Below are positions 2,308 to 62,000 of a DNA stretch of 64,000 nt, one piece after another. The stretch is from Haliotis cracherodii. Taxonomy: Eukaryota. The position numbers were made by a program, and so were the translations under genes. The DNA lies in the NCBI RefSeq assembly GCF_022045235.1, contig NW_027266330.1:43028001-43092000 (forward strand), given 5' to 3'. Each line of letters starts with the position of its first letter. Within the stretch, counting starts at the first letter, position 1. The notes under the pieces are model-generated. The model was not told the origin of the DNA and searched no databases. It saw only the letters and a program-made list of their open reading frames with translations.

Positions 2308-2922
2308 ATGAGTTTATATCCAGCGCTCGATGAAGCAATTGAAAAGATGGAAACTGTTGATGGATTTCGATTACATCAAATAAGCGACATAAAACATCGA
2401 ATAGAAAAGGATAGGGAGTTGAGACTTGGATTGTATAAAAAGTATCGCAGAGCCGTGAATGCTCTGGACGGAGTTGACACCGCTCTTGTAGTAGCTGGCA
2501 TGGGACTCGGTGTAGCCGGTGTCGGTTTACTATCAACTATAATCGCCGCGCCTATCGTGCTCGGCATGGAAATAACCGCCGGAGTCTCGGGACTGGCAGG
2601 AATAGCGATAAAATTCATTTCTCGTAGGTTACAAAAGAAAGCATTAAAACACGATAGTATTCGGATACTCGCCGAAGCAAAGTTGAACAGCATTGAGGAT
2701 CATATTTCGACAGCAATGGCCGATTGTAAGATATCCGAGGATGAGTTTCGTTTAGTGCTGTCGGAACTCACCAAATACAACGTAATGAAGCAGGAGATTC
2801 GATCAAAATCTCGTAAGACCAATGGTATTAGCGAAGACGAGAAAAAAAAGTTCATAGAACAAGGGAGGCAACAAGCGCGTCAATTATTCCGTGCCAAAAC
2901 CAAAGAACTGGTTGGAGATTAA
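2308..2922 (+). CDS. Polinton/adintovirus membrane-helix protein (probably the family annotated 'GasderminX'), intact 204 aa
   Basis: LYP..FRLHQISDI..LYKKYRR, Gly-rich hydrophobic hairpin, KH..I..LAE.KLNSI...IS.A..D.KISEDEF: a pattern common in animal Polintons. The family name is from memory, not a search. Confidence 0.65.
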   Translation: MSLYPALDEAIEKMETVDGFRLHQISDIKHRIEKDRELRLGLYKKYRRAVNALDGVDTALVVAGMGLGVAGVGLLSTIIAAPIVLGMEITAGVSGLAGIAIKFISRRLQKKALKHDSIRILAEAKLNSIEDHISTAMADCKISEDEFRLVLSELTKYNVMKQEIRSKSRKTNGISEDEKKKFIEQGRQQARQLFRAKTKELVGD

Positions 2923-2983
2923 AAATAAATTGCTTACTATCGTGTGATTACATTTAGACAAATGCTTACATAAATATATAATA

Positions 2984-3241
2984 ATGGAGAAAACTATTAA
3001 ATGGAGAGAATTACCACAAGGTTTTTATTATATCAGTGATGTCAAACCAACCAAATACGGTAATCAATTGTTTCTTATCAATTTACAAGAAGAGTGTAGT
3101 TATATAGTCTGGTCTCCTGGTAAAATGAACGAAGAACTTAATAAAAATGTTGAATATCGCTTTATCGATAAAAATAATGAAGAATATTTTTATTACCATT
3201 TAGGCTCATCTAAAGCAATGATTGGCCCCAGGTATTGGTGA
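2984..3241 (+). CDS. Small Polinton protein (85 aa)
   Basis: ORF between the membrane-protein gene and the TIR; KW.EL..G.Y.I....TKYG pattern. Confidence 0.55.
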   Translation: MEKTIKWRELPQGFYYISDVKPTKYGNQLFLINLQEECSYIVWSPGKMNEELNKNVEYRFIDKNNEEYFYYHLGSSKAMIGPRYW

Positions 3242-3250
3242 GCTAGAGCT

Positions 3251-3377
3251 GAATCTCATGACTATCGTTGAATCGCATAATCATTTTGGCATAAAAAATT
3301 CCATCTGTCGTAGCAGTATAGGTATATGAATCCAGCTCCAGTGGAAGTGGTCCAGAACCCCCATTACCTATACTACT
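3251..3377. repeat. Polinton right TIR (unit 1)
   Basis: Reverse complement closely matches 63618-63745; ends in ACTACT. Confidence 0.85.
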
Positions 3378-3784
3378 CAAGGTCTCAGCCGGTCGCTTTT
3401 CGCTTTCGTGCAACTCTTATCAGGCTGAGCCCCAAACACGCCTTTATTTATGTCTGACAAATTCATTTATACTTCCAACCTCTTTGCAATGCCAAAGTCT
3501 ATCTGCCTATACATTTTTATTCCGTTCCGACTATTTTTGGTTTTTGCCGAAAAGACAGCTATCTGTTAAGCCGTTTTGGCTGTATTTTAGCCACCATTGT
3601 TGAGTGAATTAAGAAGTTTTTGGATCATTCTCGGATCTTTGCCATGGAAGTTTCTTGTCAATTAACGAGGTCTTAGCCGGTCATTTTTCACTTTCGCACA
3701 ACTCTCATCGGCCATGTTGGGAGCCCCCAAACACCCCTTTCTTTAACTTCCAACCTCTTTGCTATGCTAAGGTCTACCTATCTA

Positions 3785-4043
3785 GACCCGTGAAGATTCT
3801 GGGGTAGAATACCCATGCTTGCCTTAAAAGGCGACTATGCTTGTCGTAAAAGGCGACTAACGGGATCGGCTGGTCAGACTCGCTGACTTAGTTGATGCAT
3901 GTCATCGATCCCAATTGCGCTGATCGATGCTCATGATATAAATCACTTGATTGTCTGGTCAAGAATTGATTATTTTACAGACCACCATCATATAGATGGA
4001 GTATTGCTGAGTGTGGCGTTAAACAACAAACCAATCCAAACCA
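3785..4043 (+). mobile_element. SINE fragment (Nin/Deu-domain type, mollusc-like)
   Basis: ACCCATGCTTGTCGTAAAAGGCGACTAA-like core and a 3' tail GTGGCGTTAAACAACAAACCAA with (CAAA)-type repeats; 22-bp internal tandem duplication. Confidence 0.7.
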
Positions 4044-4045
4044 CA

Positions 4046-7000
4046 GACAAAAAGTTCAAGTCGCTTTATGTATTTTCAGTGCCTTGTGATTTTTAATGGA
4101 ATTCATTGTGTATCGGACATCTAAGACTGCATCCATGCACCAAATTTGTTTTGTATACTGAGACTGATACTTTCTGGTTAGCTTGTGTAAAAGTCAAGTT
4201 GCTGAAGTATTTTCAGTGATGAGTATCAGACATCTAATTCATCCACATACACAATATGATATTCTTCCCGAGGACGTATCCTTTCGAAGATGTAAAAGTC
4301 ATGCACATGACAAAAAGTTCATGTCGGTGTATGTATTTTCAGTGCCTTGTGATTTTTAATGGAATTCATCTGTGTCGGACATCTAAGACTGCATCCATGC
4401 ACCAAATTTGTTTTGTATACTGAGACTGATACTTTCTGGTTAGCTTGTAGAAAAAACAAGTCGCTTTATGTATTTCCAGTGCCTTTTGATTTTTAATGGA
4501 ATTCATTGTGTGTCGGACATCTAAGACTGGGTCCATGCACCAAATTTGTTTTGTATACTGAGACTGATACTTTCTGGTTAGCTTGTAGAAAAAACAAGTC
4601 GCTTTATGTATTTCCAGTGCCTTTTGATTTTTAATGGAATTCATTGTGTGTCGGACATCTAAGACTACATCCATGCACAAAATTTGTTTTGTATACTGAG
4701 ACTGATACTTTCAGGTTAGATTGTGGAAAAGTCAAGTTGTTGATGTATTTTCAGTGCCTTGTGATTTTTAATGGAATTCATTATGTGGCGGACATCTAAG
4801 ACTGCATCCATGCACCAAATTTGTTTTGTATACTGAGACTGATACTTTGTGGTTAGCTTGTGGAAAAGTCAGGTTTGCTGAGACATCTAAGAAATCTTCC
4901 ACATACACAATATGATATTCTTCCCGAGGATGTAAAAGTCATGCACATGACAAAAAGTTCAAGTCGCTTTATGTATTTTCAGTGCCTTTTGAATTTTTAA
5001 TGGAATTCAGTGTGTGTCGGACATCTAAGACTGCATCCATGCACCAAATTTGTTTTGTATATTGAGACTGATAATTTAAGGTTAGTTTGTGGAAAAGTCA
5101 AGTTGCTGATGTATTTTCAGTGATGAGTGTCAGACATAAATATGATATTCCTGAGGATGGATTCTTTCCAAAGATGTTAAAGTCATGCACATGACAAAAA
5201 GTTCAAGTCGCTTTATGTATTTTCAGTGCCTTTTGATTTTTAATGGAATTCATTGTGTGTCGGACATCTAAGACTGCATCCATGCACCAAATTTGTTTTG
5301 TATACTGAGACTGATACTTTGAGGTTAGCTTGTAGAAAAGTCAGGTTGCTGAGACATCTAAGAAATCTTCCACATACACAATATGATATTCTTCCCGAGG
5401 ATGTAAAAGTCATGCACATGACAAAACGTTCAAGTTGCTTTATGTATTTTCAGTGCCTTTTGAATTTTTAATGGAATTCATTGTGTGTCGGACATCTAAG
5501 ACTGCATCCATGCACCAAATTTGTTTTGTATATTGAGACTGATAATTTAAGGTTGGTTTGTGGAAAAGTCAAGTTGCTGATGTATTTTCAGTGATGAGTG
5601 TCAGACATAAATATGATATTCCTGAGGATGGATTCTTTCCAAAGATGTTAAAGTCATGCACATGACAAAAAGTTCAAGTCGCTTTATGTATTTTCAGTGC
5701 CTTTTGATTTTTAATGGAATTCATTGTGTGTCGGACATCTAAGACTGCATCCATGCACAAAATTTGATTGTATACTAAGACAGATACTTTGAGGTTAGCT
5801 TGTGGAAAAGTCAAGTTGTTGATATATTTTCAGTGCCTTGTGATTTTTAATGGAATTCATTATGTGTCGGACATCTAAGACTGCATCCATGCACCAAATT
5901 TGTTTTGTATACTGAGACGGATACTTTGTGGTTAGCTTGTGTAAAAGTCAAGTTGCTAAAGTATTTTCAGTGATGAGTGTCAGACATCTAATTCATCCAC
6001 ATACACAATATGATATTCTTCCCGAGGACGTATCCTTTCGAAGATGTAAAAGTCATGCACATGACAAAAAGTTCATGTCGGTGTATGTATTTTCAGTGCC
6101 TTGTGATTTTTAATGGAATTCATCTGTGTCGGACATCTAAGACTGCATCCATGCACCAAATTTGTTTTGTATACTGAGACTGATACTTTCTGGTTAGCTT
6201 GTAGAACAAACAAGTCGCTTTATGTATTTCCAGTGACTTTTGATTTTTAATGGAATTCATTGTGTGTCTGACATCTAAGACTGCGTCCATGCACCAAATT
6301 TGTTTTGTATACTGAGACTGATACTTTCTGGTTAGCTTGTGGAAAGGTCAAGTCGCTTTATGTATTTCCAGTGCCTTTTGATTTTTAATGGAATTCATTG
6401 TGTATTGGACATCTAAGACTGCATCCATGCACAAAATTTGATTGTATACTAAGACTGATACTTTGAGGTTAGCTTGTGGAAAAGTCAAGTTGTTGATGTA
6501 TTTTCAGTGCCTTGTGATTTTTAATGGAATTCATTGTGTGTCGGACATCTAAGACTGCATCCATGCACCAAATTTGTTTTGTATACTGAGACTGATACTT
6601 TGTGGTTAGCTTGTGGAAAAGTCAGGTTGCTGAGACATCTAAGAATTCTTCCACATACACAATATGATATTCTTCCCGAGGATGTAAAAGTCATGCACCT
6701 GACAAAAAGTTCAAGTCGCTTTATGTATTTTCAGTGCCTTGTGATTTTTAATGGAATTCATCTGTGTCGGACATCTAAGACTGCATCCATGCACAAAATT
6801 TGATTGTATACTAAGACTGATACTTTGAGGTTAGTTTGTGGAAAAGTCAAGTTGTTGATGTATTTTCAGTGCCTTGTGATTTTTAATGGAATTCATTATG
6901 TGTCGGACATCTAAGACTGCATCCATGCACAATATTTGATTGTATACTAAGACTGATACTTTGAGGTTAGTTTGTGGAAAAGTCAAGTTGCTGATGTATT

Positions 7001-7625
7001 TTCAGTGATGAGTGTCAGACATCTAATTCATCCACATACACAATATGATATTCTTCCTGAGGACGTATCCTTTCGAAGATGTAAAAGTCATGCACATGAC
7101 AAAAAGTTCATGTCGGTGTATGTATTTTCAGTGCCTTGTGATTTTTAATGGAATTCATCTGTGTCGGGCATCTAAGACTGCATCCATGCACCAAATTTGT
7201 TTTGTATACTGAGACTGATACTTTCTGGTTAGCTTGTAGAAAAAACAAGTCGCTTTATGTATTTCCAGTGACTTTTGATTTTTAATGGAATTCATTGTGT
7301 GTCGGACATCTAAGACTGCGTCTATGCACCAAATTTGATTGTATACTGAGACTGATACTTTGAGGTTAGCTTGTGGAAAAGTCAAGTTGCTGATGTATTT
7401 TCAGAGATGAGTGTCAGACATCTAAATACAAAATATGATAGTCCTGAGGATGGATTCTTTCCGAAGATGTTAAAGTCATGCACATGACAAAAAGTTCAAG
7501 TCGCTTTATGTATTTTCAATGCCTTTTGAATTTTTAAAGGAATTCATTGTGTGTCGGACCTCTAAGACTGCATCCATGCACCAAATTTGTTTTGTATACT
7601 GAGACTGATAATTTAAGGTTAGTTT
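4046..7625. repeat. Modular EcoRI satellite array (unit 1)
   Basis: GGAATTC-containing monomers spaced ~137, ~228, ~243 and ~263 bp that share a common core. Confidence 0.95.
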
Positions 7626-7801
7626 GTGTAGTGACGTCATGGGAGAAATGACGTATGTTGCCATGGGGAGTATATTGGCGTGTCTTGTGAAAGGAGAATG
7701 TTTGTAAACAAATGGTGGAAAATGGTAAATGGGAATAGTTACTAGTATTGTTTATGAGGAGCTGACCATAAACCGATTTAGCTAAATAATGCTAAATCAT
7801 A
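7626..7801 (-). repeat. Ngaro direct repeat A2 (copy 1)
   Basis: Near-identical to 13023-13197. Confidence 0.9.
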
Positions 7802-8303
7802 TTATGTTCAGACTACCTCCGATGAAAAGATTAACAAACAATGATGTTTTGTGGGATATAATGGGCAGAGTGTGGATGAGGCAGTCGGGGGGATAAGCAA
7901 GGTCCTACCGCGGACTAGAAATCGCATACAGCCCCTATCGCGGGTCAAGTTGTCCCTCCACCGTGCTTGGCAGACAGGACCCACAGCAAAGATACTATCA
8001 CTCCCCCCGCGGAAACAGCGGGCAGAAGAATTTGGGCTCCCACTGTAATTAGCAGGCAGCCAGAGTATCATACACACACCAGCATGGTGTTAAACCAAAT
8101 CCCCCGACTGCACCATGCCAAACAGCGGGGTGCAAAATGTATAAATACACTATGCACACCGCTGACATCCACACATTATATTATATTTGCATTAAATTAT
8201 GATGTGGAAGGGAGATGGGGAGTGGATAAGAGACTGGGAAGGAAAAGAAAATTATGCGCCTCCCCCCAAAGTGAAGTTATACATACTTACCCGAACAGTA
8301 CCT

Positions 8304-8836
8304 TTACTCATCACTAAACAATGTCCTGCGTACATTTGATTTAAAATGGGCCATGCCCGACCGGTTTAAATGAACTCCCCGAGGAGTATAAAATGGAGCA
8401 TCATGTTTGATCTGAGGGTGGGTACACCTTAGACCCCCCTCTTCCCTGATCACTCCCGCAATCCGCCTATTAATCAATTTTCTTTTCAGTTCAATCCTTT
8501 TAACATTGCTGGCTCCTCGCCAGGTTTGTCGAGGCAACATGTCAGACCATACCAATTTGGTATTCGGGAGTTTAAGTTGAGCGTATGTTATGTCCAGATA
8601 CATGTTTTCATAAAGTTCCTTTGTCCCCTTTGTACACAGATCATTTGATCCAAGGTGGATAAACAGAAGCTTCGGCTGGGGATGGCGGGCAACAAGTGTA
8701 TCCACTGCCTTGCGGAATTCCCCCCACTTCATTCCGCCCTTTGCATGCCAGCGGGTACCCGTCAGTAGGGAGTCCGATGTAGTGGCCAGATGGTCGTGGA
8801 ATCGGACCATATAACTGGACCCGATACACCATACAT
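8304..8836 (-). CDS. SGNH/GDSL hydrolase-like exon (copy 1)
   Basis: VWCIGSSY (block I, upstream of the track's ATG at 8810), KGG (II), HLGSND (III), GVHLN (V); preceded by a TTTCAG acceptor-like site. Confidence 0.85.
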
Positions 8837-9163
8837 CTGAAACTTAAAACACACTAGCAGCATCTTTGTTATAATAACATCTGCTTTATCTTTACCTANN
8901 NNNNNNNNNNNNNNNNNNNNNNNNNNNNNNNNNNNNNNNNNNNNNNNNNNNNNNNNNNNNNNNNNNNNNNNNNNNNNNNNNNNNNNNNNNNNNNNNNNNN
9001 NNNNNNNNNNNNNNNNNNNNNNNNNNNNNNNNNNNNNNNNNNNNNNNNNNNNNNNNNNNNNNNTAGAGTTAGTGAAAAAGTATGTATTATCCCGTTACCC
9101 CCGTGGAACCGCAACAGGCAGGAACGGCTGGTGAGTCTGTGTTTGTTTCTGCTAGGTATACTG

Positions 9164-10159
9164 TTAAGTGGTGAGTTGAGTAATGCGGATATATTTGCTG
9201 TAACAGTTTGATTTCCAACGCCCATATTTCTGAATCTGCTTGGAACTAACCCCATTAATTGCTGCTGTGGTAGCCGCTCCAATGCGAAAAGAGTGTGACG
9301 AAAACAAATGAAGATTGAGGTGTGGTAAAGAAAATGACAGGGCCTTTCTTAACATTGACTGAAATTGGAATCTATTTAAAGGACGTCCATCAAAATGGAC
9401 GAACACATGACCGTGCACTGGTGGTCTGATGGATAGAAACTGTTGCATTGCTCTGACAGGACACAGTCTAGAGTGAAGGATAGCTGTTATTTGTATTTGC
9501 ACACCTCTGCCGCCCTGATCCGTTTTGGATGAGCGTAAACATATCGTTATGTGACTTATATCTGCTGCCACATGAATATCAGACAAAAGACACGCCTTAT
9601 GCGAGAAATCCTTGGCTGACCCTGCCACCAGCTCGCTGATTCTAAAGAATCCAAAAAATGCAAGCAGGTATGCAGCTGTGAAAAGAGACGTTTCGTAAAC
9701 TGAAGCACAAACTACCGGTAATGCTGTGACAATAACAGACAATAAGTCAACTGTAATTGGGAGTCGAGTGTCAGCCTTCTGTTTCTGTCTGACAAATCCA
9801 ATCAAGGCTTTCTGAATAAGAAAATGGGATGTTAGGTCATGCATACCATGTAACTTTTGCCATGTTGTTAATGCTGATATATACGACTTTGCCGTGCGAG
9901 GAGATTTTCCTGTTAAGGAGAGATGAGCGATAAAATGCATAAGGTGATCAACCGGGGTGGGCCAAATGTGTGGCAGGCTGAAAGAGATGCGAAAAACATT
10001 AAATGACTTTAGTGCAGACTCATACAGGTTCCATGTGTTGAGTGCTAGAGAAGACTGCACTAGACGTTGCACCTCTGTCGTCAGATCTGCCATATGTCCT
10101 GTGGTATGTGTGCTGGTATCTCGTCTGCCTGCGGTGCTGCTTCTTTGAACCTGGACCAC
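9164..10159 (-). CDS. Tyrosine recombinase (copy 1)
   Basis: FFRISEL, SKTDQ, HSFRIGAAT, GRWKS and YIR: the full catalytic set. Confidence 0.95.
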   Translation of the reverse strand: MVQVQRSSTAGRRDTSTHTTGHMADLTTEVQRLVQSSLALNTWNLYESALKSFNVFRISFSLPHIWPTPVDHLMHFIAHLSLTGKSPRTAKSYISALTTWQKLHGMHDLTSHFLIQKALIGFVRQKQKADTRLPITVDLLSVIVTALPVVCASVYETSLFTAAYLLAFFGFFRISELVAGSAKDFSHKACLLSDIHVAADISHITICLRSSKTDQGGRGVQIQITAILHSRLCPVRAMQQFLSIRPPVHGHVFVHFDGRPLNRFQFQSMLRKALSFSLPHLNLHLFSSHSFRIGAATTAAINGVSSKQIQKYGRWKSNCYSKYIRITQLTT

Positions 10160-12003
10160 TGAAATCTCGAAAGTGCATCAGCTATAACGTTTGCATGCGT
10201 AGGAATATACGATGCTTTGAACAAGATATTATGTTGTAAACAGAGGAGTATCAGGCGCCTAAGCAACGACATAACTCGTGGTGGTTTTGCTGTTTGTTTA
10301 TTGATAATTGCTACCACTGCTTGGTTGTCACAAACAAACAACACTCGCTTATTTCGTAGATGTCTGCCCCACAGTCTTACTGCCAATACAATTGGAAAAA
10401 GCTCTAGCATAGTGATGTCTTTAGTCCATCCATTCTGCACCCACTCGTTAGGCCATCTGCCATTGGCCCATCTGCCCATGAAAAAGGCTCCGAAACCATG
10501 GTTACCTGACGCGTCGGTAAACAAATGTGTATCCGATGAATTGATCCACTCTGAATCTATAAATTCAGTAGTGCCATTGTGGTTTTGAAGAAATTGCCGC
10601 CATAAATTGAGGTCCTCGCGTATGCCTTGTGTTATCCTTATTCTGTGGTGAGGTTTTGACCCTCCGCGCTGTGCGTCAATGAGGCGTCTTAAAAAGGCGC
10701 GACCAATCGGAATTGCCCTACATACAAAATTAAGTTTCCCAAACAAGGACTGCAAGTAGTTTAATGTTGTTTTCTTCTTAAAAGGTGATAAAAGAGTATC
10801 TATTTCCTGCGTAAGCGGCACTACCTTATCCCTCGGTATGCTAATTTGCGCTTTGACTGTGTCTATTGTGATACCCAGGAACGTCATGTTTGTTGTAGGT
10901 AGAACCGTTTTGTCCTTTGCGACGGGAACGCCCATGTTTTGTAATAACTCCAGAGAGGACTGGAGAGTTTGTTGACACTTATTAGAGGCTAGTGCTGCCA
11001 ATGCAAAATCATCCAAATAATGTTGTATGTTATCATTTTTGGTGTATTTCCTGAGTACCCACTGCAAAAATGTGCTAAACTTTTCAAATGTTGCACATGA
11101 TATGGAACAGCCAAATGGAAGACATTTGTCAAAGTAGAAATTATGTTTGAATTGTATGCCCAGAAATTTAAAGTCATCTGGTCGTATAGGTATGAGGCGA
11201 AATGCAGACTTTATATCAAATTTTGCCATGTATGCACCCTTGCCTAATCCTTGTATCGCGGATAGCACCTGGTCAAAGCTAGTGTACTTGACTGTTGACA
11301 CCTCGTGTGATATGTAGTCGTTTACAGACTCTCCCTCAGGGTATGACAGATGGTGAATAAGTCTGAACGTTTGCTGAACTTGTTGATTATTGTGATTTGA
11401 CTTCTTCGGAACGAGACCGATTGGAGAAACTATCATATCTTGAAATGGTGGTGCTGTAAATGGACCTGCAATTCTACCTAGATCAACTTCTTTTTGTAGC
11501 ATTGTTGCCACCATGTTAGGATGTTGTTGTGCGGATTTTAAATTGTATGCCATTCTAGGACCCGGTGGACCCGTGTACTGTAGTGGAAAACCTCGAGAAA
11601 AACCTTCCGATAAAAACATAGCATCTGATGCGTAAAAGGGGGTGTAAATACTGAGTCTATGTGACAATACACGCATACTAATGGGTGTTGGCACTAGGCC
11701 TTGAGTTGGTATTGTTTGGGTTGGGTTTTGTTTGAGTACGGGGGGTTTTAACGCCCCCTTTTTGACGAAAGCATGTGTGTGCGCCGTGTGCAGTGCTGTC
11801 ACATGTGATGCATTTGTGTGCATATCGGCAGAAAGACCTTGTACATCCGAATTTGTTAAAATCCCAGCAAAACTTTGGGGTGCTACCGGTATTTGCGCTA
11901 TCCGCGTTGAGATTGCTGCGGTTGGTGGTAGTGGTGGTGTTTGTGACGCGCGCGTGTGCTGCTTGTTGATTTGGAAGCATATGTTGTAACCATAAATGGC
12001 CAT
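10081..12003 (-). CDS. Reverse transcriptase-RNase H (copy 1)
   Basis: DIKSAFR, LPFG, YLDDF; RNase H FTDAS, LEL, CDN, NVIADALSR. Confidence 0.95.
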   Translation of the reverse strand: MAIYGYNICFQINKQHTRASQTPPLPPTAAISTRIAQIPVAPQSFAGILTNSDVQGLSADMHTNASHVTALHTAHTHAFVKKGALKPPVLKQNPTQTIPTQGLVPTPISMRVLSHRLSIYTPFYASDAMFLSEGFSRGFPLQYTGPPGPRMAYNLKSAQQHPNMVATMLQKEVDLGRIAGPFTAPPFQDMIVSPIGLVPKKSNHNNQQVQQTFRLIHHLSYPEGESVNDYISHEVSTVKYTSFDQVLSAIQGLGKGAYMAKFDIKSAFRLIPIRPDDFKFLGIQFKHNFYFDKCLPFGCSISCATFEKFSTFLQWVLRKYTKNDNIQHYLDDFALAALASNKCQQTLQSSLELLQNMGVPVAKDKTVLPTTNMTFLGITIDTVKAQISIPRDKVVPLTQEIDTLLSPFKKKTTLNYLQSLFGKLNFVCRAIPIGRAFLRRLIDAQRGGSKPHHRIRITQGIREDLNLWRQFLQNHNGTTEFIDSEWINSSDTHLFTDASGNHGFGAFFMGRWANGRWPNEWVQNGWTKDITMLELFPIVLAVRLWGRHLRNKRVLFVCDNQAVVAIINKQTAKPPRVMSLLRRLILLCLQHNILFKASYIPTHANVIADALSRFQWSRFKEAAPQADEIPAHIPQDIWQI

Positions 12004-12879
12004 CTATTGCCCACCAGGATCGAGACGGGTCACGTTGCATCCTTTGTCTGAAACTACGGTCATATTGCAACCATGAATCTCCGCCGAACCTAATAGCAGC
12101 TCCCCTGATTGTTTCGCTGTAGGTAAGCAGATCCTGTATCTTATCCGGGTGTTTTTCTATGTATACGCTCATGTAGACGTTAAACGCCGATGTCCATGCG
12201 CCAATGCCTAATGGACGCGTTTGTTGTTGTTTGGGTTTAAAAATAATCTGACCTGTGGCGTCGAGCGCCAATGTAAATGCCGACATCTCTTGGGGTGTCT
12301 GATTTTGGGCCGATATTAGTTGTTTTAGCTCAATGAATTCGCCGTTGTGTATTTTTTCCCGTAGTTGTTGGGAAACATGTGATCCGATGTGTTCCGCTCT
12401 GATGTTTAACTGTATAGACAGGGTGTATTTGTCGCGGGTATGCCAAACATGGTTGGATCGTTTATATTCATAGTTGTGAAAGGATTGGGTGTTTGTGTTT
12501 GCTGTTGGGACGGATGCGTGTTATGTGCGTTTTCGCGTGCTAATGTACTAATGTTTATGTGCCCTTCATTGTTTGAAGACCTATCCCCAGTCGGCATCTG
12601 CGTGTCCCCGTTTGTGAGCGTGCTGTTAGCAAGCCTTGCCGTATTTGTAGGAAGCACTGTGTTAGCCGAGTTTGCATTATGCATAATATTGCTCGAATTG
12701 ATAAAAACAAAATCACTATCCAACGTACCTGCAGTGTATTGTGGTACTCCGCTGATCAGTCGTGAGCCAATTGGCGCATCCAAGTCTCTTCTATCCACAT
12801 TTCTGCTAACCCCCGTCCTACTGGCTTTCGGACCCTTCACCAGTCGGTGGGTCAGCGCCGCTTTCCTTTTAGGAGGCAT
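11678..12879 (-). pseudogene. gag-like gene split by a -1 frameshift (copy 1)
   Basis: MPPKRK ORF (12879-12406) and a -1-frame continuation IGSHVSQQLREKIHNGEFIEL...W..YD..FR...CWDFN..C....C...H.C..C....H....C (Zn fingers). Confidence 0.85.
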
Positions 12880-13019
12880 CCCAAACGAAGTAATGAGGTG
12901 AGGTGAAAACGCTATAGAGGTGAAACCGTAAGAGGTGAAATGCTAACCGCCGGACGCGTTGTGTTGTGTTGTTAGAATGACTTGACGGTTGGGGAGTAAA
13001 AGAAGTGACATCACGAGAC

Positions 13020-13052
13020 CACGTGTAGTGACGTCATGGGAGAAATGACGTA
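13020..13052. promoter_or_regulatory. E-box plus CRE cluster at the Ngaro 5' repeat
   Basis: CACGTG (13020-13025), perfect CRE palindrome TGACGTCA (13029-13036) and a second TGACGTA site; function inferred. Confidence 0.4.
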
Positions 13053-13197
13053 TGTTGCCATGGGGAGTATATTGGCGTGTCTTGTGAAAGGAAATGTTTG
13101 TAAACAAATGGTGGAAAATGGTAAATGGGAATACTTACTAGTATTGTTTATGCGGAGCTGACCATAAACCGATTTAGCTAAATAATGCTAAATCATA
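13023..13197 (-). repeat. Ngaro direct repeat A1 (5' terminus, copy 1)
   Basis: Matches 7626-7801; joins the Polinton gene at the position equivalent to 2435. Confidence 0.9.
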
Positions 13198-13685: not shown

Positions 13686-13746
13686 AAATAAATTGCTTAC
13701 TATCGTGTGATTACATTTAGACAAATGCTTACATAAATATATAATA

Positions 13747-14004: not shown

Positions 14005-14013
14005 GCTAGAGCT

Positions 14014-14806: not shown

Positions 14807-14808
14807 CA

Positions 14809-49182: not shown

Positions 49183-49184
49183 CA

Positions 49185-51811: not shown

Positions 51812-52489
51812 GTGTAGTGATGTCATGGGAGAAATGACGTATGTTGCCATGGGGAGTATATTGGCGTGTCTTGTGAAAGGAGAATGTTTGTAAACAAATG
51901 GTGGAAAATGGTAAATGGGAATAGTTACTAGTATTGTTTATGCGGAGCTGACCATAAACCGATTTAGCTAAATAATGCTAAATCATATTATGTTCAGACT
52001 ACCTCCGATGAAAAGATTAACAAACAATGATGTTTTGTGGGATATAATGGGCAGAGTGTGGATGAGGCAGTCGGGGGGATAAGCAAGGTCCTACCGCGGA
52101 CTAGAAATCGCATACAGCCCCTATCGCGGGTCAAGTTGTCCCTCCACCGTGCTTGGCAGACAGGACCCACAGCAAAGATACTATCACTCCCCCCGCGGAA
52201 ACAGCGGGCAGAAGAATTTGGGCTCCCACTGTAATTAGCAGGCAGCCAGAGTATCATACACACACCAGCATGGTGTTAAACCAAATCCCCCGACTGCACC
52301 ATGCCAAACAGCGGGGTGCAAAATGTATAAATACACTATGCACACCGCTGACATCCACACATTATATTATATTTGCATTAAATTATGATGTGGAAGGGAG
52401 ATGGGGAGTGGATAAGAGACTGGGAAGGAAAAGAAAATTATGCGCCTCCCCCCAAAGTGAAGTTATACATACTTACCCGAACAGTACCT

Positions 52490-53022
52490 TTACTCATCAC
52501 TAAACAATGTCCTGCGTACATTTGATTTAAAATGGGCCATGCCCGACCGGTTTAAATGAACTCCCCGAGGAGTATAAAATGGAGCATCATGTTTGATCTG
52601 AGGGTGGGTACACCTTAGACCCCCCTCTTCCCTGATCACTCCCGCAATCCGCCTATTAATCAATTTTCTTTTCAGTTCAATCCTTTTAACATTGCTGGCT
52701 CCTCGCCAGGTTTGTCGAGGCAACATGTCAGACCATACCAATTTGGTATTCGGGAGTTTAAGTTGAGCGTATGTTATGTCCAGATACATGTTTTCATAAA
52801 GTTCCTTTGTCCCCTTTGTACACAGATCATTTGATCCAAGGTGGATAACCAGAAGCTTCGGCTGGGGATGGCGGGCAACAAGTGTATCCACTGCCTTGCG
52901 GAATTCCCCCCACTTCATTCCGCCCTTTGCATGCCAGCGGGTACCCGTCAGTAGGGAGTCCGATGTAGTGGCCAGATGGTCGTGGAATCGGACCATATTA
53001 CTGGACCCGATACACCATACAT
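52490..53022 (-). CDS. SGNH hydrolase-like exon (copy 5)
   Basis: As copy 1. Confidence 0.85.
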
Positions 53023-53367
53023 CTGAAACTTAAAACACACTAGCAGCATCTTTGTTATAATAACATCTGCTTTATCTTTACCTANNNNNNNNNNNNNNNN
53101 NNNNNNNNNNNNNNNNNNNNNNNNNNNNNNNNNNNNNNNNNNNNNNNNNNNNNNNNNNNNNNNNNNNNNNNNNNNNNNNNNNNNNNNNNNNNNNNNNNNN
53201 NNNNNNNNNNNNNNNNNNNNNNNNNNNNNNNNNNNNNNNNNNNNNNNNNNNNNNNNNNNNNNNNNNNNNNAGTTAGTGAAAAAGTATGTATTATCCCGTT
53301 ACCCCCGTGGAACCGCAACAGGCAGGAACGGCTGGTGAGTCTGTGTTTGTTTCTGCTAGGTATACTG

Positions 53368-54363
53368 TTAAGTGGTGAGTTGAGTAATGCGGATATATTT
53401 GCTGTAACAGTTTGATTTCCAACGCCCATATTTCTGAATCTGCTTGGAACTAACCCCATTAATTGCTGCTGTGGTAGCCGCTCCAATGCGAAAAGAGTGT
53501 GACGAAAACAAATGAAGATTGAGGTGTGGTAAAGAAAATGACAGGGCCTTTCTTAACATTGACTGAAATTGGAATCTATTTAAAGGACGTCCATCAAAAT
53601 GGACGAACACATGACCGTGCACTGGTGGTCTGATGGATAGAAACTGTTGCATTGCTCTGACAGGACACAGTCTAGAGTGAAGGATAGCTGTTATTTGTAT
53701 TTGCACACCTCTGCCGCCCTGATCCGTTTTGGATGAGCGTAAACATATCGTTATGTGACTTATATCTGCTGCCACATGAATATCAGACAAAAGACACGCC
53801 TTATGCGAGAAATCCTTGGCTGACCCTGCCACCAGCTCGCTGATTCTAAAGAATCCAAAAAATGCAAGCAGGTATGCAGCTGTGAAAAGAGACGTTTCGT
53901 AAACTGAAGCACAAACTACCGGTAATGCTGTGACAATAACAGACAATAAGTCAACTGTAATTGGGAGTCGAGTGTCAGCCTTCTGTTTCTGTCTGACAAA
54001 TCCAATCAAGGCTTTCTGAATAAGAAAATGGGATGTTAGGTCATGCATACCATGTAACTTTTGCCATGTTGTTAATGCTGATATATACGACTTTGCCGTG
54101 CGAGGAGATTTTCCTGTTAAGGAGAGATGAGCGATAAAATGCATAAGGTGATCAACCGGGGCGGGCCAAATGTGTGGCAGGCTGAAAGAGATGCGGAAAA
54201 CATTAAATGACTTTAGTGCAGACTCATACAGGTTCCATGTGTTGAGTGCTAGAGAAGACTGCACTAGACGTTGCACCTCTGTCGTCAGATCTGCCATATG
54301 TCCTGTGGTATGTGTGCTGGTATCTCGTCTGCCTGCGGTGCTGCTTCTTTGAACCTGGACCAC
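53368..54363 (-). CDS. Tyrosine recombinase (copy 5)
   Basis: As copy 1. Confidence 0.95.
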   Translation of the reverse strand: MVQVQRSSTAGRRDTSTHTTGHMADLTTEVQRLVQSSLALNTWNLYESALKSFNVFRISFSLPHIWPAPVDHLMHFIAHLSLTGKSPRTAKSYISALTTWQKLHGMHDLTSHFLIQKALIGFVRQKQKADTRLPITVDLLSVIVTALPVVCASVYETSLFTAAYLLAFFGFFRISELVAGSAKDFSHKACLLSDIHVAADISHITICLRSSKTDQGGRGVQIQITAILHSRLCPVRAMQQFLSIRPPVHGHVFVHFDGRPLNRFQFQSMLRKALSFSLPHLNLHLFSSHSFRIGAATTAAINGVSSKQIQKYGRWKSNCYSKYIRITQLTT

Positions 54364-56207
54364 TGAAATCTCGAAAGTGCATCAGCTATAACGTTTGCAT
54401 GCGTTGGAATATACGATGCTTTGAACAAGATATCATGTTGTAAACAGAGGAGTATCAGGCGCCTAAGCAACGACATAACTCGTGGTGGTTTTGCTGTTTG
54501 TTTATTGATAATTGCTACCACTGCTTGGTTGTCACAAACAAACAACACTCGCTTATTTCGTAGATGTCTGCCCCACAGTCTTACTGCCAATACAATTGGA
54601 AAAAGCTCTAGCATAGTGATGTCTTTAGTCCATCCATTCTGCACCCACTCGTTAGGCCATCTGCCATTGGCCCATCTGCCCATGAAAAAGGCTCCGAAAC
54701 CATGGTTACCTGACGCGTCGGTAAACAAATGTGTATCCGATGAATTGATCCACTCTGAATCTATAAATTCAGTAGTGCCATTGTGGTTTTGAAGAAATTG
54801 CCGCCATAAATTGAGGTCCTCGCGTATGCCTTGTGTTATCCTTATTCTGTGGTGAGGTTTTGACCCTCCGCGCTGTGCGTCAATGAGGCGTCTTAAAAAG
54901 GCGCGACCAATCGGAATTGCCCTACATACAAAATTAAGTTTCCCAAACAAGGACTGCAAGTAGTGTAATGTTGTTTTCTTCTTAAAAGGTGATAAAAGAG
55001 TATCTATTTCCTGCGTAAGCGGCACTACCTTATCCCTCGGTATGCTAATTTGCGCTTTGACTGTGTCTATTGTGATACCCAGGAACGTCATGTTTGTTGT
55101 AGGTAGAACCGTTTTGTCCTTTGCGACGGGAACGCCCATGTTTTGTAATAACTCCAGAGAGGACTGGAGAGTTTGTTGACACTTATTAGAGGCTAGTGCT
55201 GCCAATGCAAAATCATCCAAATAATGTTGTATGTTATCATTTTTGGTGTATTTCCTGAGTACCCACTGCAAAAATGTGCTAAACTTTTCAAATGTTGCAC
55301 ATGATATGGAACAGCCAAATGGAAGACATTTGTCAAAGTAGAAATTATGTTTGAATTGTATGCCCAGAAATTTAAAGTCATCTGGTCGTATAGGTATGAG
55401 GCGAAATGCAGACTTTATATCAAATTTTGCCATGTATGCACCCTTGCCTAATCCTTGTATAGCGGATAGCACCTGGTCAAAGCTAGTGTACTTGACTGTT
55501 GACACCTCGTGTGATATGTAGTCGTTTACAGACTCTCCCTCAGGGTATGACAGATGGTGAATAAGTCTGAACGTTTGCTGAACTTGTTGATTATTGTGAT
55601 TTGACTTCTTCGGAACGAGACCGATTGGAGAAACTATCATATCTTGAAATGGTGGTGCTGTAAATGGACCTGCAATTCTACCTAGATCAACTTCTTTTTG
55701 TAGCATTGTTGCCACCATGTTAGGATGTTGTTGTGCGGATTTTAAATTGTATGCCATTCTAGGACCCGGTGGACCCGTGTACTGTAGTGGAAAACCTCGA
55801 GAAAAACCTTCCGATAAAAACATAGCATCTGATGCGTAAAAGGGGGTGTAAATACTGAGCCAATGTGACAATACACGCATACTAATGGGTGTTGGCACTA
55901 GGCCTTGAGTTGGTATTGTTTGGGTTGGGTTTTGTTTGAGTACGGGGGGTTTTAACGCCCCCTTTTTGACGAAAGCATGTGTGTGGGCCGTGTGCAGTGC
56001 TGTCACATGTGATGCATTTGTGTGCATATCGGCAGAAAGACCTTGTACATCCGAATTTGTTAAAATCCCAGCAAAACTTTGGGGTGCTACCGGTATTTGC
56101 GCTATCCGCGTTGAGATTGCTGCGGTTGGTGGTAGTGGTGGTGTTTGTGACGCGCGCGTGTGCTGCTTGTTGATTTGGAAGCATATGTTGTAACCATAAA
56201 TGGCCAT
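54285..56207 (-). CDS. RT-RNase H (copy 5)
   Basis: As copy 1. Confidence 0.95.
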   Translation of the reverse strand: MAIYGYNICFQINKQHTRASQTPPLPPTAAISTRIAQIPVAPQSFAGILTNSDVQGLSADMHTNASHVTALHTAHTHAFVKKGALKPPVLKQNPTQTIPTQGLVPTPISMRVLSHWLSIYTPFYASDAMFLSEGFSRGFPLQYTGPPGPRMAYNLKSAQQHPNMVATMLQKEVDLGRIAGPFTAPPFQDMIVSPIGLVPKKSNHNNQQVQQTFRLIHHLSYPEGESVNDYISHEVSTVKYTSFDQVLSAIQGLGKGAYMAKFDIKSAFRLIPIRPDDFKFLGIQFKHNFYFDKCLPFGCSISCATFEKFSTFLQWVLRKYTKNDNIQHYLDDFALAALASNKCQQTLQSSLELLQNMGVPVAKDKTVLPTTNMTFLGITIDTVKAQISIPRDKVVPLTQEIDTLLSPFKKKTTLHYLQSLFGKLNFVCRAIPIGRAFLRRLIDAQRGGSKPHHRIRITQGIREDLNLWRQFLQNHNGTTEFIDSEWINSSDTHLFTDASGNHGFGAFFMGRWANGRWPNEWVQNGWTKDITMLELFPIVLAVRLWGRHLRNKRVLFVCDNQAVVAIINKQTAKPPRVMSLLRRLILLCLQHDILFKASYIPTHANVIADALSRFQWSRFKEAAPQADEIPAHIPQDIWQI

Positions 56208-57083
56208 CTATTGCCCACCAGGATCGGGACGGGTCACGTTGCATCCTTTGTCTGAAACTACGGTCATATTGCAACCATGAATCTCCGCCGAACCTAATAG
56301 CAGCTCCCCTGATTGTTTCGCTGTAGGTAAGCAGATCCTGTATCTTATCCGGGTGTTTTTCTATGTATACGCTCATGTAGACGTTAAACGCCGATGTCCA
56401 TGCGCCAATGCCTAATGGACGCGTTTGTTGTTGTTTGGGTTTAAAAATAATCTGACCTGTGGCGTCGAGCGCCAATGTAAATGCCGACATCTCTTGGGGT
56501 GTCTGATTTTGGGCCGATATTAGTTGTTTTAGCTCAATGAATTCGCCGTTGTGTATTTTTTCCCGTAGTTGTTGGGAAACATGTGATCCGATGTGTTCCG
56601 CTCTGATGTTTAACTGTATAGACAGGGTGTATTTGTCGCGGGTATGCCAAACATGGTTGGATCGTTTATATTCATAGTTGTGAAAGGATTGGGTGTTTGT
56701 GTTTGCTGTTGGGACGGATGCGTGTTATGTGCGTTTTCGCGTGCTAATGTACTAATGTTTATGTGCCCTTCATTGTTTGAAGACCTGTCCCCAGTCGGCA
56801 TCTGCGTGTCCCCGTTTGTGAGCGTGCTGTTAGCAAGCCTTGCCGTATTTGTAGGAAGCACTGTGTTAGCCGAGTTTGCATTATGCATAATATTGCTCGA
56901 ATTGATAAAAACAAAATCACTATCAAACGTACCTGCAGTGTTCTGTGGTACTCCGCTGATCAGTCGTGAGCCAATTGGCGCATCCAAGTCTCTTCTATCC
57001 ACATTTCTGCTAACCCCCGTCCTACTGGCTTTCGGACCCTTCACCAGTCGGTGGGTCAGCGCCGCTTTCCTTTTAGGAGGCAT
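55882..57083 (-). pseudogene. gag-like gene, frameshifted (copy 5)
   Basis: Same split as copy 1. Confidence 0.85.
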
Positions 57084-57389
57084 CCCAAACGAAGTAATGA
57101 GGTGAGGTGAAAACGCTATAGAGGTGAAACCGTAAGAGGTGAAATGCTAACCGCCGGACGCGTTGTGTTGTGTTGTTAGAATGACTTGACGGTTGGGGAG
57201 TAAAAGAAGTGACATCACGAGACCACGTGTAGTGACGTCATGGGAGAAATGACGTATGTTGCCATGGGGAGTATATTGGCGTGTCTTGTGAAAGGAGAAT
57301 GTTTGTAAACAAATGGTGGAAAATGGTAAATGGGAATACTTACTAGTATTGTTTATGCGGAGCTGACCATAAACCGATTTAGCTAAATA

Positions 57390-57890
57390 ATGCTAAATCA
57401 TAATAAAAAGTATCGCAGAGCCGTGAATGCTCTGGACGGAGTTGACACCGCTCTTGTAGTAGCTGGCATGGGACTCGGTGTAGCCGGTGTCGGTTTACTA
57501 TCAACTATAATCGCCGCGCCTATCGTGCTCGGCATGGAAATAACCGCCGGAGTCTCGGGACTGGCAGGAATAGCGATAAAATTCATTTCTCGTAGGTTAC
57601 AAAAGAAAGCATTAAAACACGATAGTATTCGGATACTCGCCGAAGTAAAGTTGAACAGCATTGAGGATCATATTTCGACAGCAATGGCCGATTGTAAGAT
57701 ATCCGAGGATGAGTTTCGTTTAGTGCTGTCGGAACTCACCAAATACAACGTAATGAAGCAGGAGATTCGATCAAAATCTCGTAAGACCAATGGTATTAGC
57801 GAAGACGAGAAAAAAAAGTTCATAGAACAAGGGAGGCAACAAGCGCGTCAATTATTCCGTGCCAAAACCAAAGAACTGGTTGGAGATTAA
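57390..57890 (+). CDS. Chimeric truncated Polinton membrane-protein ORF (166 aa)
   Basis: As 13185..13685, with one A>V change. Confidence 0.4.
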   Translation: MLNHNKKYRRAVNALDGVDTALVVAGMGLGVAGVGLLSTIIAAPIVLGMEITAGVSGLAGIAIKFISRRLQKKALKHDSIRILAEVKLNSIEDHISTAMADCKISEDEFRLVLSELTKYNVMKQEIRSKSRKTNGISEDEKKKFIEQGRQQARQLFRAKTKELVGD

Positions 57891-57951
57891 AAATAAATTG
57901 CTTACTATCGTGTGATTACATTTAGACAAATGCTTACATAAATATATAATA

Positions 57952-58209
57952 ATGGAGAAAACTATTAAATGGAGAGAATTACCACAAGGTTTTTATTATA
58001 TCAGTGATGTCAAACCAACCAAATACGGTAATCAATTGTTTCTTATCAATTTACAAGAAGAGTGTAGTTATATAGTCTGGTCTCCTGGTAAAATGAACGA
58101 AGAACTTAATAAAAATGTTGAATATCGCTTTATCGATAAAAATAATGAAGAATATTTTTATTACCATTTAGGCTCATCTAAAGCAATGATTGGCCCCAGG
58201 TATTGGTGA
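57952..58209 (+). CDS. Small Polinton protein (85 aa), duplicate
   Basis: Identical protein to 2984..3241. Confidence 0.5.
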   Translation: MEKTIKWRELPQGFYYISDVKPTKYGNQLFLINLQEECSYIVWSPGKMNEELNKNVEYRFIDKNNEEYFYYHLGSSKAMIGPRYW

Positions 58210-58218
58210 GCTAGAGCT

Positions 58219-58345
58219 GAATCTCATGACTATCGTTGAATCGCATAATCATTTTGGCATAAAAAATTCCATCTGTCGTAGCAGTATAGGTATATGAATC
58301 CAGCTCCAGTGGAAGTGGTCCAGAACCCCCATTACCTATACTACT
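58219..58345. repeat. Polinton right TIR (unit 6)
   Basis: Copy of 3251-3377. Confidence 0.85.
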
Positions 58346-58752
58346 CAAGGTCTCAGCCGGTCGCTTTTCGCTTTCGTGCAACTCTTATCAGGCTGAGCCC
58401 CAAACACGCCTTTATTTATGTCTGACAAATTCATTTATACTTCCAACCTCTTTGCAATGCCAAAGTCTATCTGCCTATACATTTTTATTCCGTTCCGACT
58501 ATTTTTGGTTTTTGCCGAAAAGACAGCTATCTGTTAAGCCGTTTTGGCTGTATTTTAGCCACCATTGTTGAGTGAATTAAGAAGTTTTTGGATCATTCTC
58601 GGATCTTTGCCATGGAAGTTTCTTGTCAATTAACGAGGTCTTAGCCGGTCATTTTTCACTTTCGCACAACTCTCATCGGCCATGTTGGGAGCCCCCAAAC
58701 ACCCCTTTCTTTAACTTCCAACCTCTTTGCTATGCTAAGGTCTACCTATCTA

Positions 58753-59011
58753 GACCCGTGAAGATTCTGGGGTAGAATACCCATGCTTGCCTTAAAAGGC
58801 GACTATGCTTGTCGTAAAAGGCGACTAACGGGATCGGCTGGTCAGACTCGCTGACTTAGTTGATGCATGTCATCGATCCCAATTGCGCTGATCGATGCTC
58901 ATGATATAAATCACTTGATTGTCTGGTCAAGAATTGATTATTTTACAGACCGCCATCATATAGATGGAGTATTGCTGAGTGTGGCGTTAAACAACAAACC
59001 AATCCAAACCA
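58753..59011 (+). mobile_element. SINE fragment (unit 6)
   Basis: Copy of 3785-4043. Confidence 0.7.
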
Positions 59012-59013
59012 CA

Positions 59014-62000
59014 GACAAAAAGTTCAAGTCGCTTTATGTATTTTCAGTGCCTTGTGATTTTTAATGGAATTCATTGTGTATCGGACATCTAAGACTGCAT
59101 CCATGCACCAAATTTGTTTTGTATACTGAGACTGATACTTTCTGGTTAGCTTGTGTAAAAGTCAAGTTGCTGAAGTATTTTCAGTGATGAGTATCAGACA
59201 TCTAATTCATCCACATACACAATATGATATTCTTCCCGAGGACGTATCCTTTCGAAGATGTAAAAGTCATGCACATGACAAAAAGTTCATGTCGGTGTAT
59301 GTATTTTCAGTGCCTTGTGATTTTTAATGGAATTCATCTGTGTCGGACATCTAAGACTGCATCCATGCACCAAATTTGTTTTGTATACTGAGACTGATAC
59401 TTTCTGGTTAGCTTGTAGAAAAAACAAGTCGCTTTATGTATTTCCAGTGCCTTTTGATTTTTAATGGAATTCATTGTGTGTCGGACATCTAAGACTGGGT
59501 CCATGCACCAAATTTGTTTTGTATACTGAGACTGATACTTTCTGGTTAGCTTGTAGAAAAAACAAGTCGCTTTATGTATTTCCAGTGCCTTTTGATTTTT
59601 AATGGAATTCATTGTGTGTCGGACATCTAAGACTACATCCATGCACCAAATTTGTTTTGTATACTGAGACTGATACTTTCTGGTTAGCTTGTGGAAAAGT
59701 CAGGTTGCTGAGACATCTAAGAATTCTTCCAAATACACAATATGATATTCTTCCCGAGGATGTAAAAGTCATGCACATGACAAAAAGTTCAAGTCGCTTT
59801 ATGCATTTTCAGTGCCTTGTGATTTTTAATGGAATTCATCTGTGTCGGACATCTAAGACTGCATCCATGCACAAAATTTGATTGTATACTAAGACTGATA
59901 CTTTGTGGTTAGCTTGTATAAAAGTCAAGTCGCTGATGTATTTTTAGTGATGAGTGTCAGACATCTAATTCATCCACATCCACAATATGATATTCTTCCC
60001 AAGGACGTATCCTTCCGAATGCACATGACAAAAAGTTCAAGTCGCTTTATGTATTTTCAGTGCCTTTTGATTTTTAATGGAATTCATTGTGTATCAGACA
60101 TCTAAGACTGCATTCATGCACCAAATTTGTTTTGTATACTGAGACTGATAATTTAAGGTTATTTTGTGGAAAAGTTGAAGTTGCTGATGTATTTTCAGTG
60201 ATGAGTGTCAGACATAAATATGATAGTCCTGAGGATTGCTTCTTTCCGAAGATGTTAAAGTAATGCACATGACAAAAAGTTCAAGACGCTTTATGTATTT
60301 TCAGTGCCTTGTGATTTTTAATGGAATTTATTGTGTATCGGACATCTAAGATGCATCCATGCACCAAACTTGTTTTGTATACTGAGACTGATACTTTCTG
60401 GTTAGCTTGTGGAAATGTCAAGTCGCTTTTATGTATTTTCAGTGCCTTGTGATTTTTAATGGAATTCATTGTGTGTGGGACATCTAAGACTGCATCCATG
60501 CACCAAATTTGATTGTATACTGAGACTGATACTTTGAGGTTAGCTTGTATAAAAGTCAAGTTGCTGATGTATTTTTAGTGATGAGTGTCAGACATCTAAT
60601 TCATCCACATGCACAATATGATATTCTTCCCAAGGACGTATCCTTTCGAATGCACATGACAAAAAGTTCAAGTCGCTTTATGTATTTTCAGTGCCTTTTG
60701 ATTTTTAATGGAATTCATCTGTGTTGGACATCTAAGACTGCATCCTTGCACCAAATTTGTTTTCTATACTGAGACTGATAATTTAAGGTTAGCTTGTGGA
60801 AATGTCAAGTCGCTTTATGTATTTTCAGTGCCTTGTGATTTTTAATGGAATTTATTGTGTATCGGACATCTAAGACTGCATCCGTGCACCAAACTTGTTT
60901 TGTATACTGAGACTGATACTTTCTGGTTAGTTTGTGGAAATGTCAAGTCGCTTTTATGTATTTTCAGTGCCTTTTGATTTTTAATGGAAATAATCTGTGT
61001 CGGACATCTAAGACCGCATCCATGCACCAAATTTGTTTTCTATACTAAGACTGATACTTTCTGGATAGCTTGTTGAAATTTCAAGTCGCTTTATGTATTT
61101 TCAGTGCCTTTTGATTTTTAATGGAATTCATTGTGTATCAGACATCTAAGACTGCATTCATGCACCAAATTTGTTTTGTATACTGAGACTGATAATTTAA
61201 GGTTAGTTTGTGGAAAAGTTGAAGTTGCTGATGTATTTTCAGTGATGAGTGTCAGACATAAATATGATAGTCCTGAGGATTGCTTCTTTCCGAAGATGTT
61301 AAAGTCATGCACATGACAAAAAGTTCAAGACGCTTTATGTATTTTCAGTGCCTTGTGATTTTTAATGGAATTTATTGTGTATCGGACATCTAAGACTGCA
61401 TCCATGCACCAAATTTGTTTTCTATACTAAGACTGATACTTTGTGGTTAGCTTGTTGAAAAGTCAAGTCGCTTTTATGTATTTTCAGTGCCTTGTGATTT
61501 TTAATGGAAATCATCTGTGTCGGACATCTAAGACTGCATCTATGCACCAAATTTGATTGTATACTGAGACTGATACTTTGAGGTTAGCTTGTATAAAAGT
61601 CAAGTTGCTGATGTATTTTTAGTGATGAGTGTCAGACATCTAATTCATCCACATGCACAATATGATATTCTTCCCAAGGACGTATCCTTTCGAATGCACA
61701 TGACAAAAAGTTCAAGTCGCTTTATGTATTTTCAGTGCCTTTTGATTTTTAATGGAATTCATCTGTGTTGGACATCTAAGACTGCATCCTTGCACCAAAT
61801 TTGTTTTCTATACTGAGACTGATAATTTAAGGTTAGCTTGTGGAAATGTCAAGTCGCTTTATGTATTTTCAGTGCCTTGTGATTTTTAATGGAATTTATT
61901 GTGTATCGGACATCTAAGACTGCATCCGTGCACCAAACTTGTTTTGTATACTGAGACTGATACTTTCTGGTTAGTTTGTGGAAATGTCAAGTCGCTTTTA

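Follow-up and report, generated by a model that had tools for sequence, protein, structure and literature searches.

Ngaro-type retrotransposon copies alternating with Polinton-like and satellite DNA in an assembled array of Haliotis cracherodii

Known bridged duplications and the Haliotis array

Duplications with a transposable element at the seam, and arrays of transposable elements that have grown by unequal exchange, are already established. In the Drosophila cases Bar1 (roo), the white/roo exchange and px1 (DM412 between 1.5-kb duplicates), a single retrotransposon sits at the seam with flanks that do not match each other, the outer copy of the duplicated segment is uninterrupted, and copy number changes by unequal exchange (PMC13322080, PMC7003089). 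An L1-bridged tandem duplication from the PCAWG tumour collection has a similar logic, in that one insertion joins two distant breakpoints across sister chromatids and the non-enzymatic end is often microhomologous (PMC7058536). Here we describe a locus in a 64,000-nucleotide stretch of Haliotis cracherodii DNA (assembly GCF_022045235.1, contig NW_027266330.1, positions 43,028,001 to 43,092,000, forward strand), called the window below. In it, copies of an Ngaro-type retrotransposon alternate with segments, called Y, that each hold the right end of a Polinton-like element, a short interspersed element (SINE) and a satellite. Our preferred explanation, to which we give a probability of roughly 0.6, is a transposon-bridged tandem duplication (Y-Ngaro-Y) that was later amplified by unequal exchange. 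An Ngaro-type bridge extends a mode of duplication known from long terminal repeat (LTR) elements in Drosophila and from L1 in tumours.

The hallmarks of the Drosophila cases, a duplicated segment with a transposable element at the seam, non-matching flanks and outer copies free of the element, are all present. The locus differs from those cases in that the bridge is a tyrosine-recombinase element without its B2 repeat, the duplicated DNA is itself mobile and satellite DNA, and there are five seams. The L1 event differs in being somatic, in using target-primed reverse transcription and in spanning 22.6 Mb (PMC7058536), whereas the recombinase route put forward below is our proposal.

Canonical Ngaro elements follow the plan A1-ORFs-B1-A2-B2, where ORFs are open reading frames; an SGNH hydrolase ORF is optional, a methyltransferase is absent and the terminal repeats are often lost (PMC9210276). 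DIRS-53_XT and DIRS-54_XT of Xenopus and the Ngaros of Cafeteria EMALEs share with the Haliotis element the order gag, reverse transcriptase/RNase H, tyrosine recombinase and SGNH, the direct A repeats and the lack of a methyltransferase match (PMC9210276, PMC8547959). Insertion of Ngaros into Polinton-like viruses is also known from the Cafeteria EMALEs (PMC8547959). Compared with known Ngaros, the copies described here have no B1/B2 pair and form a periodic array with foreign spacer DNA.

Transposable-element arrays (hobo, R1 and Bari1) and macrosatellites (D4Z4 and DXZ4) likewise consist of kilobase units that have grown by unequal exchange (PMC5932611, PMC8122249). Dimers of hobo, R1 and Bari1 come from double insertion at one site or from LTR recombination, whereas 4.2 kb of non-element DNA separates the copies here; DXZ4 has 12-100 units, against five. 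The nearest case among tyrosine-recombinase elements is that of the TATE tandem clusters in telomeric repeats (PMC6681497). The literature searched left out most subscription papers, and comparable truncated or tandem copies may be listed in the Ngaro tables of PMC8547959 and PMC9210276; within it we met no array of this kind bridged by an Ngaro or DIRS element, nor any description of segmental duplications made by the recombinase of a tyrosine-recombinase retrotransposon. The array is one locus in one assembly and has no evident host function.

Array layout, junctions and copy divergence

Self-comparison of the window together with junction read-outs resolved an array from 2435 to 63617, in which six Y segments on the plus strand alternate with five Ngaro-type copies on the minus strand. 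The outer left segment, Y1 (2435..7628), carries 19 satellite monomers (137-bp core plus spacers) at 4042-7628. It is followed by N1 (7629..13197), the most divergent copy, which reads A1, ORF0, gag, reverse transcriptase/RNase H, tyrosine recombinase, SGNH and A2, without B2. Y2 (13198..17437) has the internal satellite arrangement of 13 monomers, as do Y3 (23009..32167), Y4 (37739..41979) and Y5 (47574..51814); Y3 also contains a 4915-bp insert, and Y5 is one substitution away from Y4. The remaining element copies are N2 (17438..23008), N3 (32168..37738), N4 (41980..47573) and N5 (51815..57402). Y6 (57403..63617), the outer right segment, has 26 monomers, most of them more diverged.

The repeated segments are 98-99.9% identical over kilobases, far above chance. 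Successive Ngaro copies start 9809, 14730, 9812 and 9835 bp apart, the second of these periods being long because of the 4915-bp insert in the SINE of Y3. An earlier note on the window had described a structure Y-[Ngaro-Y]x5 with a unit of about 9.8 kb. We recovered that structure, as head-to-tail units, and the unit length applies to three of the four intervals (9809-9835). The note had ended the array at 59700, whereas it runs on to 63617, where a second Polinton-like element begins, and the uniform Y that it implied is in fact three satellite arrangements (19, 13 and 26 monomers) plus the insert in Y3. Its phrase "becoming a macrosatellite" is an overstatement: the assembly holds a five-unit array bounded on both sides, and the data give no direction of change.

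As the note had stated, every Ngaro 5' end joins a single position in a Polinton-like gene: all five meet base 2435, in identical junctions and with no overlap. Also as stated, the first copy of this target gene (2308..2922, plus strand) is uninterrupted, its ORF reading through 2434/2435; the copies in Y2-Y6 lack the 5' part, and the one in Y3 has a 1-bp deletion as well. The 3' ends of all five join one base of a single type of satellite monomer, with a 3-bp GTG shared at the junction. The claim of a common satellite position stands in full for Y2-Y5 only, since in Y1 the junction monomer has a different upstream neighbour and three changes of its own, and agrees exactly with the internal monomers only in its last 68 bp. 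In N1, the A2 repeat (7626..7801, minus strand; 176 bp including the 3-bp microhomology with the satellite) is 98-100% identical to the A1 copies, and the A1 repeat (13023..13197, minus strand) abuts gene base 2435 without overlap. In this locus an empty target and a joined end can be compared within one molecule, which offers useful evidence on the little-studied integration specificity of Ngaros; that of DIRS-1 has been called not yet investigated (PMC7192593).

The Ngaro copies differ in all ten pairwise comparisons, by 6-21 changes in about 5400 bases (0.11-0.39%), in a nested pattern with mosaic blocks. N1 and Y2 form the most diverged block. Of the 55 pairs that the 11 shared sites form, 26 fail the four-gamete test, which points to repeated exchange or conversion. 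The most recent step can be followed at base resolution: the segments 36563-46850 and 46398-56680 differ by one substitution in 10,097 compared bases, and differences rise on both sides of these near-identical 10.1 kb, to 5 in 2957 bases on the left and 6 in 723 on the right, which places the breakpoint in gag. N4 is accordingly chimeric: its 3' side resembles N5 and its 5' side N3, which is what unequal exchange between element copies would be expected to leave.

The first 637 satellite bases of Y1 and Y6 are identical; Y4, the internal copy compared, departs from them after about 440. Over their 2244 shared bases Y1 and Y6 differ at two positions, after which their satellite order is unrelated. 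The internal arrangement is a patchwork of Y1-like pieces, and deriving it from Y1 by one crossover was rejected, as painting it with Y1 needs many jumps. Even between internal segments the satellite varies, with 14 sites differing between Y2 and Y4. The older satellite of Y6 contains a 1044-bp higher-order duplication (96.7%, 60032-62287).

An assembly artefact, in which one or two real units were expanded or concatenated, is in our view highly improbable. Each Ngaro copy contains one run of N, of 158-191 nt, at the same homologous place, so that contiguity at those places is not checkable from the window sequence, and such a recurrent run is a possible point of false joining. The youngest step, with its one substitution in 10.1 kb, could be a false duplication, since duplicating that one unit in error would look no different. 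Haplotype mixing can also yield mosaic variants. Against this, the 6-21 differences in all ten Ngaro pairs go beyond two alleles; variant sites outside the satellite comprise 35 substitutions (16 transitions) and 4 indels, with no frameshift in any of the 25 Ngaro ORF copies; Y3 alone carries an insert, flanked by a target duplication; to either side of the N run, N4 and N5 have derived alleles in common; and the uneven run lengths appear unlike fixed-size scaffold gaps. Several copies with the same junctions therefore exist, since the divergence and the unique insert exceed what two alleles or read errors allow. Their tandem order and their number, five, are those of the assembly.

The founding step

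The earlier note had argued that a simple insertion could not give this structure. That is right for one clean insertion, and known answers exist in Bar/roo and the L1-bridged duplications. The note took up neither these precedents nor a route through two insertions. One junction pair is common to all five copies, which points to a single founding event. We propose that the A1 end of an Ngaro was first joined to the Polinton-like gene at 2434/2435, probably by the element's own tyrosine recombinase. The other end would then have lost B2 and probably part of A2, and this trimmed end would have been joined through the 3-bp microhomology to a break in the satellite several kilobases downstream, giving Y-Ngaro-Y. 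The left flank would derive from an uninserted copy of the locus, and the first gene would be whole for that reason. Out-of-register exchange and conversion between units would then have brought the units to five and rearranged the satellite, a process that the youngest step documents and that we extend to the earlier ones, and the 4.9-kb insert would have landed in one unit after amplification.

The uninserted copy could have been the sister chromatid in a failed integration or an empty homologue, the latter entering when the template was switched or through an ordinary crossover within Y at a later time. The note's idea that an inserted and an empty allele had recombined agrees with this reading, except that the empty copy need not be an allele: with no more than two differences between Y1 and Y6 over 2244 shared bases, it may be the sister chromatid. 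The L1-bridged tandem duplication has been attributed to bridging of sister chromatids, and junctions of L1-mediated deletions show microhomologies of 1-5 bp (median 3) in 47 of 63 cases (PMC7058536). Both Haliotis junctions lie in terminal repeats with all ORFs open, which should be rare for a randomly captured fragment, and at least one of the two is probably a true element end.

Several observations weigh against a bridged duplication. That the A1 end is a natural terminus is unprovable: in the absence of B2, the same match also sets the B1|A2 boundary, and the reasoning is circular. A palindrome at the inner edge of A2 gives no proof of a recombinase site, being unremarkable (701 of 5304 positions are as good). 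At the gene junction, a blunt join with no target duplication, the shared-trinucleotide rule of DIRS elements (PMC7192593) fits at only two of three bases. Microhomology of at least 3 bp arose in 6.3% of 200,000 random pairs. An out-of-register exchange in the Y1 junction monomer is needed whichever satellite context came first, and is unexplained; further exchanges are needed because the satellites of Y1 and Y6 have no common order past 637 bp and the agreement of Y1 with the internal junction monomers extends over only 68 bp. Finally, the satellite break site matches the gene site at 11 of 18 bases, a match that 154 of 16,264 satellite positions achieve, and a bridged duplication does not predict that likeness.

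This last point speaks for an origin of the Bar type, in which two separate Ngaros of like orientation, inserted in the gene on one chromatid and at a similar motif in the satellite on another, recombined to leave a hybrid element with non-matching flanks between two Y segments, followed by unequal exchange; in a variant, one recombinase reaction joined the two ends to two similar sites. Bar1 arose in this way through roo (PMC13322080), and one VIPER copy has been reported with differently ordered repeats ending in A2 (PMC6681497). The gene site and the uninterrupted satellite site match in register, and across six windows 0.6-3.0% of satellite positions match as well; however, the windows were picked after the sites had been seen, satellite positions are not independent of one another, and a monomer site that was not used matches better (14 of 18). 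A motif derived from the two sites finds the gene site and, beyond it, nothing except that position of the monomer (66 matches), which is circular by construction. Such an origin would also require a family without B2, or a B2 deletion that begins exactly at the insertion point. N1 bears no trace of a separate satellite insertion: its private changes lie on the gene-side half and none on the satellite side, and a separate satellite insertion behind N1 was rejected because they are on the wrong side. On balance we consider a Bar-type origin unlikely. Purifying selection did not mark N1 as a distinct active copy either, its nine private substitutions (four silent in a per-site codon test) offering too few sites.

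It is also conceivable, though distinctly doubtful, that the family ends naturally at A2, with plain direct terminal repeats and no B2, or that its recombinase joins two ends to two look-alike sites, preferring a motif of the type TTGT|RNAAAA. Such a motif is present at a single place in the Polinton-like gene and at one in each satellite monomer. If either held, the recombinase of a retrotransposon would create segmental duplications and seed macrosatellites. In a collection of bacterial and archaeal contigs, none of 54 pattern matches proved to be an intact copy of the family and an A-repeat motif had no exact match, which is uninformative given the make-up of that collection.

The earlier note had also suggested that a circle of about 9.8 kb, formed by joining satellite to A2, was amplified and re-integrated, which we take to mean copying by rolling-circle replication. 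A circle can be closed at a microhomology junction, transposable-element arrays have been proposed to arise from rolling-circle concatemers (PMC5932611), Y2-Y5 have one satellite arrangement in common, and Y1 joins that arrangement within its last 68 bp, as a crossover into the satellite would. A single crossover should nevertheless have left the internal satellite in Y1 or at the start of Y6, and neither has it; the 6-21 changes among Ngaro copies are nested, not star-like; and the youngest step breaks in gag. We therefore disfavour a circle as very unlikely, although later exchange could have erased one that founded the array.

The least probable reading, which we can hardly credit, is that Ngaro and Y form one composite mobile unit whose transcript ran from A1 through A2 and Y to the next A1, was reverse transcribed and re-entered by recombinase or homology. 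All ORFs are open, A repeats flank both modules, and no AATAAA or ATTAAA occurs in the 3' region of the element on its own strand. On that same strand, however, the satellite has ATTAAA in each of its 13 monomers, and the array starts and ends with Y and so has no termini of its own.

The element, the Polinton-like sequences and the Y3 insert

Returning to the Ngaro-type element itself, its order on the minus strand is A1, a short ORF, a gag-like ORF, reverse transcriptase/RNase H, tyrosine recombinase, SGNH hydrolase and A2, and all five ORFs are open in each of the five copies. Domains of a reverse transcriptase and of a tyrosine recombinase were detected (RVT_1, E 2.4e-17; Phage_integrase, E 8.9e-07); RT_RNaseH (E 0.0014) fell below its curated cut-off, as did the Lipase_GDSL_2 match of the SGNH ORF (E 2.1e-04). 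No methyltransferase family was among the domain matches of the five ORFs. A search with the recombinase gave 612 relatives among 2897 candidates, the best named being uncharacterised Haliotis proteins (56% and 47%). N2 has an in-frame 9-bp tandem expansion in the reverse transcriptase ORF (21359-21383) that adds three residues.

A1 and A2 match over 176 bp, and no B1/B2 pair was found when the region inside A2 was compared with three 400-bp flanks (longest exact match 8-10 bp). The element thus has the A pair only of the canonical split direct repeats, and our label Ngaro-type reflects an Ngaro-like gene set in which this one defining feature is missing. It is best read as a 3'-truncated Ngaro. 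An initiator-like motif was tried as proof that A2 is truncated and was uninformative, because what we take to be its consensus has one match within A (151) and another past its edge (219). Judging from their ORFs, the copies can still encode all proteins, but without B2 they probably cannot rebuild their own ends. We speculate that five such copies might provide proteins in trans, or act on the Polinton-like gene through antisense read-through RNA.

The 3' junction falls within CACGTG, between two palindromes that we take to be like cAMP response elements (CRE) and that, where A1 is intact, make up an imperfect inverted repeat (22810-22845; the other copies are alike). This CACGTG/CRE-like site is possibly a promoter or a hairpin-prone break site.

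The window begins with three Polinton-like ORFs (71..2206, plus strand). The first two, which we presume to have a penton-like role, are paralogous, with 66% protein identity over 205 aligned positions; at the DNA level the tandem genes within 28-1495 are 80% alike, the second frame seemingly being shifted near its start relative to the first. In a protein atlas the first ORF had look-alikes at 0.98, including Preplasmiviricota clusters. The target gene reached 0.94, with a low recognition score, with Preplasmiviricota and mollusc clusters; it had 177 relatives among 1340 candidates, and none of the 120 listed was named beyond "hypothetical". Its protein has a long hydrophobic, glycine-rich stretch, and its atlas cluster was automatically named with RTX and has no Pfam family, which is a lead only. 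Searches of the Polinton-like genes against Pfam, NCBIfam and PDB gave no family and no convincing match, and no Polinton core gene was identified in the window; the genes for pPolB, integrase, ATPase, protease and capsid, and the 6-bp target duplication typical of Polintons, would lie outside it.

The right terminal inverted repeat of this first Polinton-like element (3228..3377, no strand assigned) ends in ACTACT. It aligns over about 150 bp, to 3377, with the start of a second element at 63618; the two related ends belong to different elements. The left end of the second element (63618..64000, plus strand) starts with AGTAGT, a terminus that we take to be a mark of Polintons; its terminal repeat is present twice, about 170 bp apart (63618-63920), and is followed by an ORF that begins near 63937, whose 21 residues presumably resemble Polinton integrase starts. 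The label Polinton-like accordingly refers to putative elements recognised by related terminal repeats and Preplasmiviricota look-alikes in the atlas. The two elements apparently lie head to tail, and CTTG flanks both ends. The second starts at the same phase of the satellite monomer as the Ngaro 3' junctions (within GTG), in another monomer type; the phase common to 63617/63618 and those junctions possibly marks a shared hotspot, or is due to chance (roughly 2% by our estimate).

The SINE of Y1 (3785..4041, plus strand), called from its sequence and tail, presumably resembles the gastropod MetaSINEs (HalSINE1-like), a group defined by a tRNA-derived head and a 66-bp Meta domain. Rfam, over bases 1-30000 of the 64000, and ARAGORN, for tRNA over the whole window, gave no matches, the SINE included. 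The spacer between the Polinton-like end and the SINE (3378-3790) contains a diverged internal repeat, 67% alike at an offset of 288.

A duplicated TTAA flanks the single-copy insert in the SINE of Y3 (4915 bp, 24401..29315, no strand assigned). The two ends of the insert do not form an inverted-repeat pair, no ORF within it exceeds 109 amino acids, and typing it by its ends failed for want of matching termini; one end is, we assume, piggyBac-like and the other Kolobok-like. The insert perhaps consists of nested or end-swapped elements. Near its right end, a 25-bp near-palindromic repeat occurs twice.

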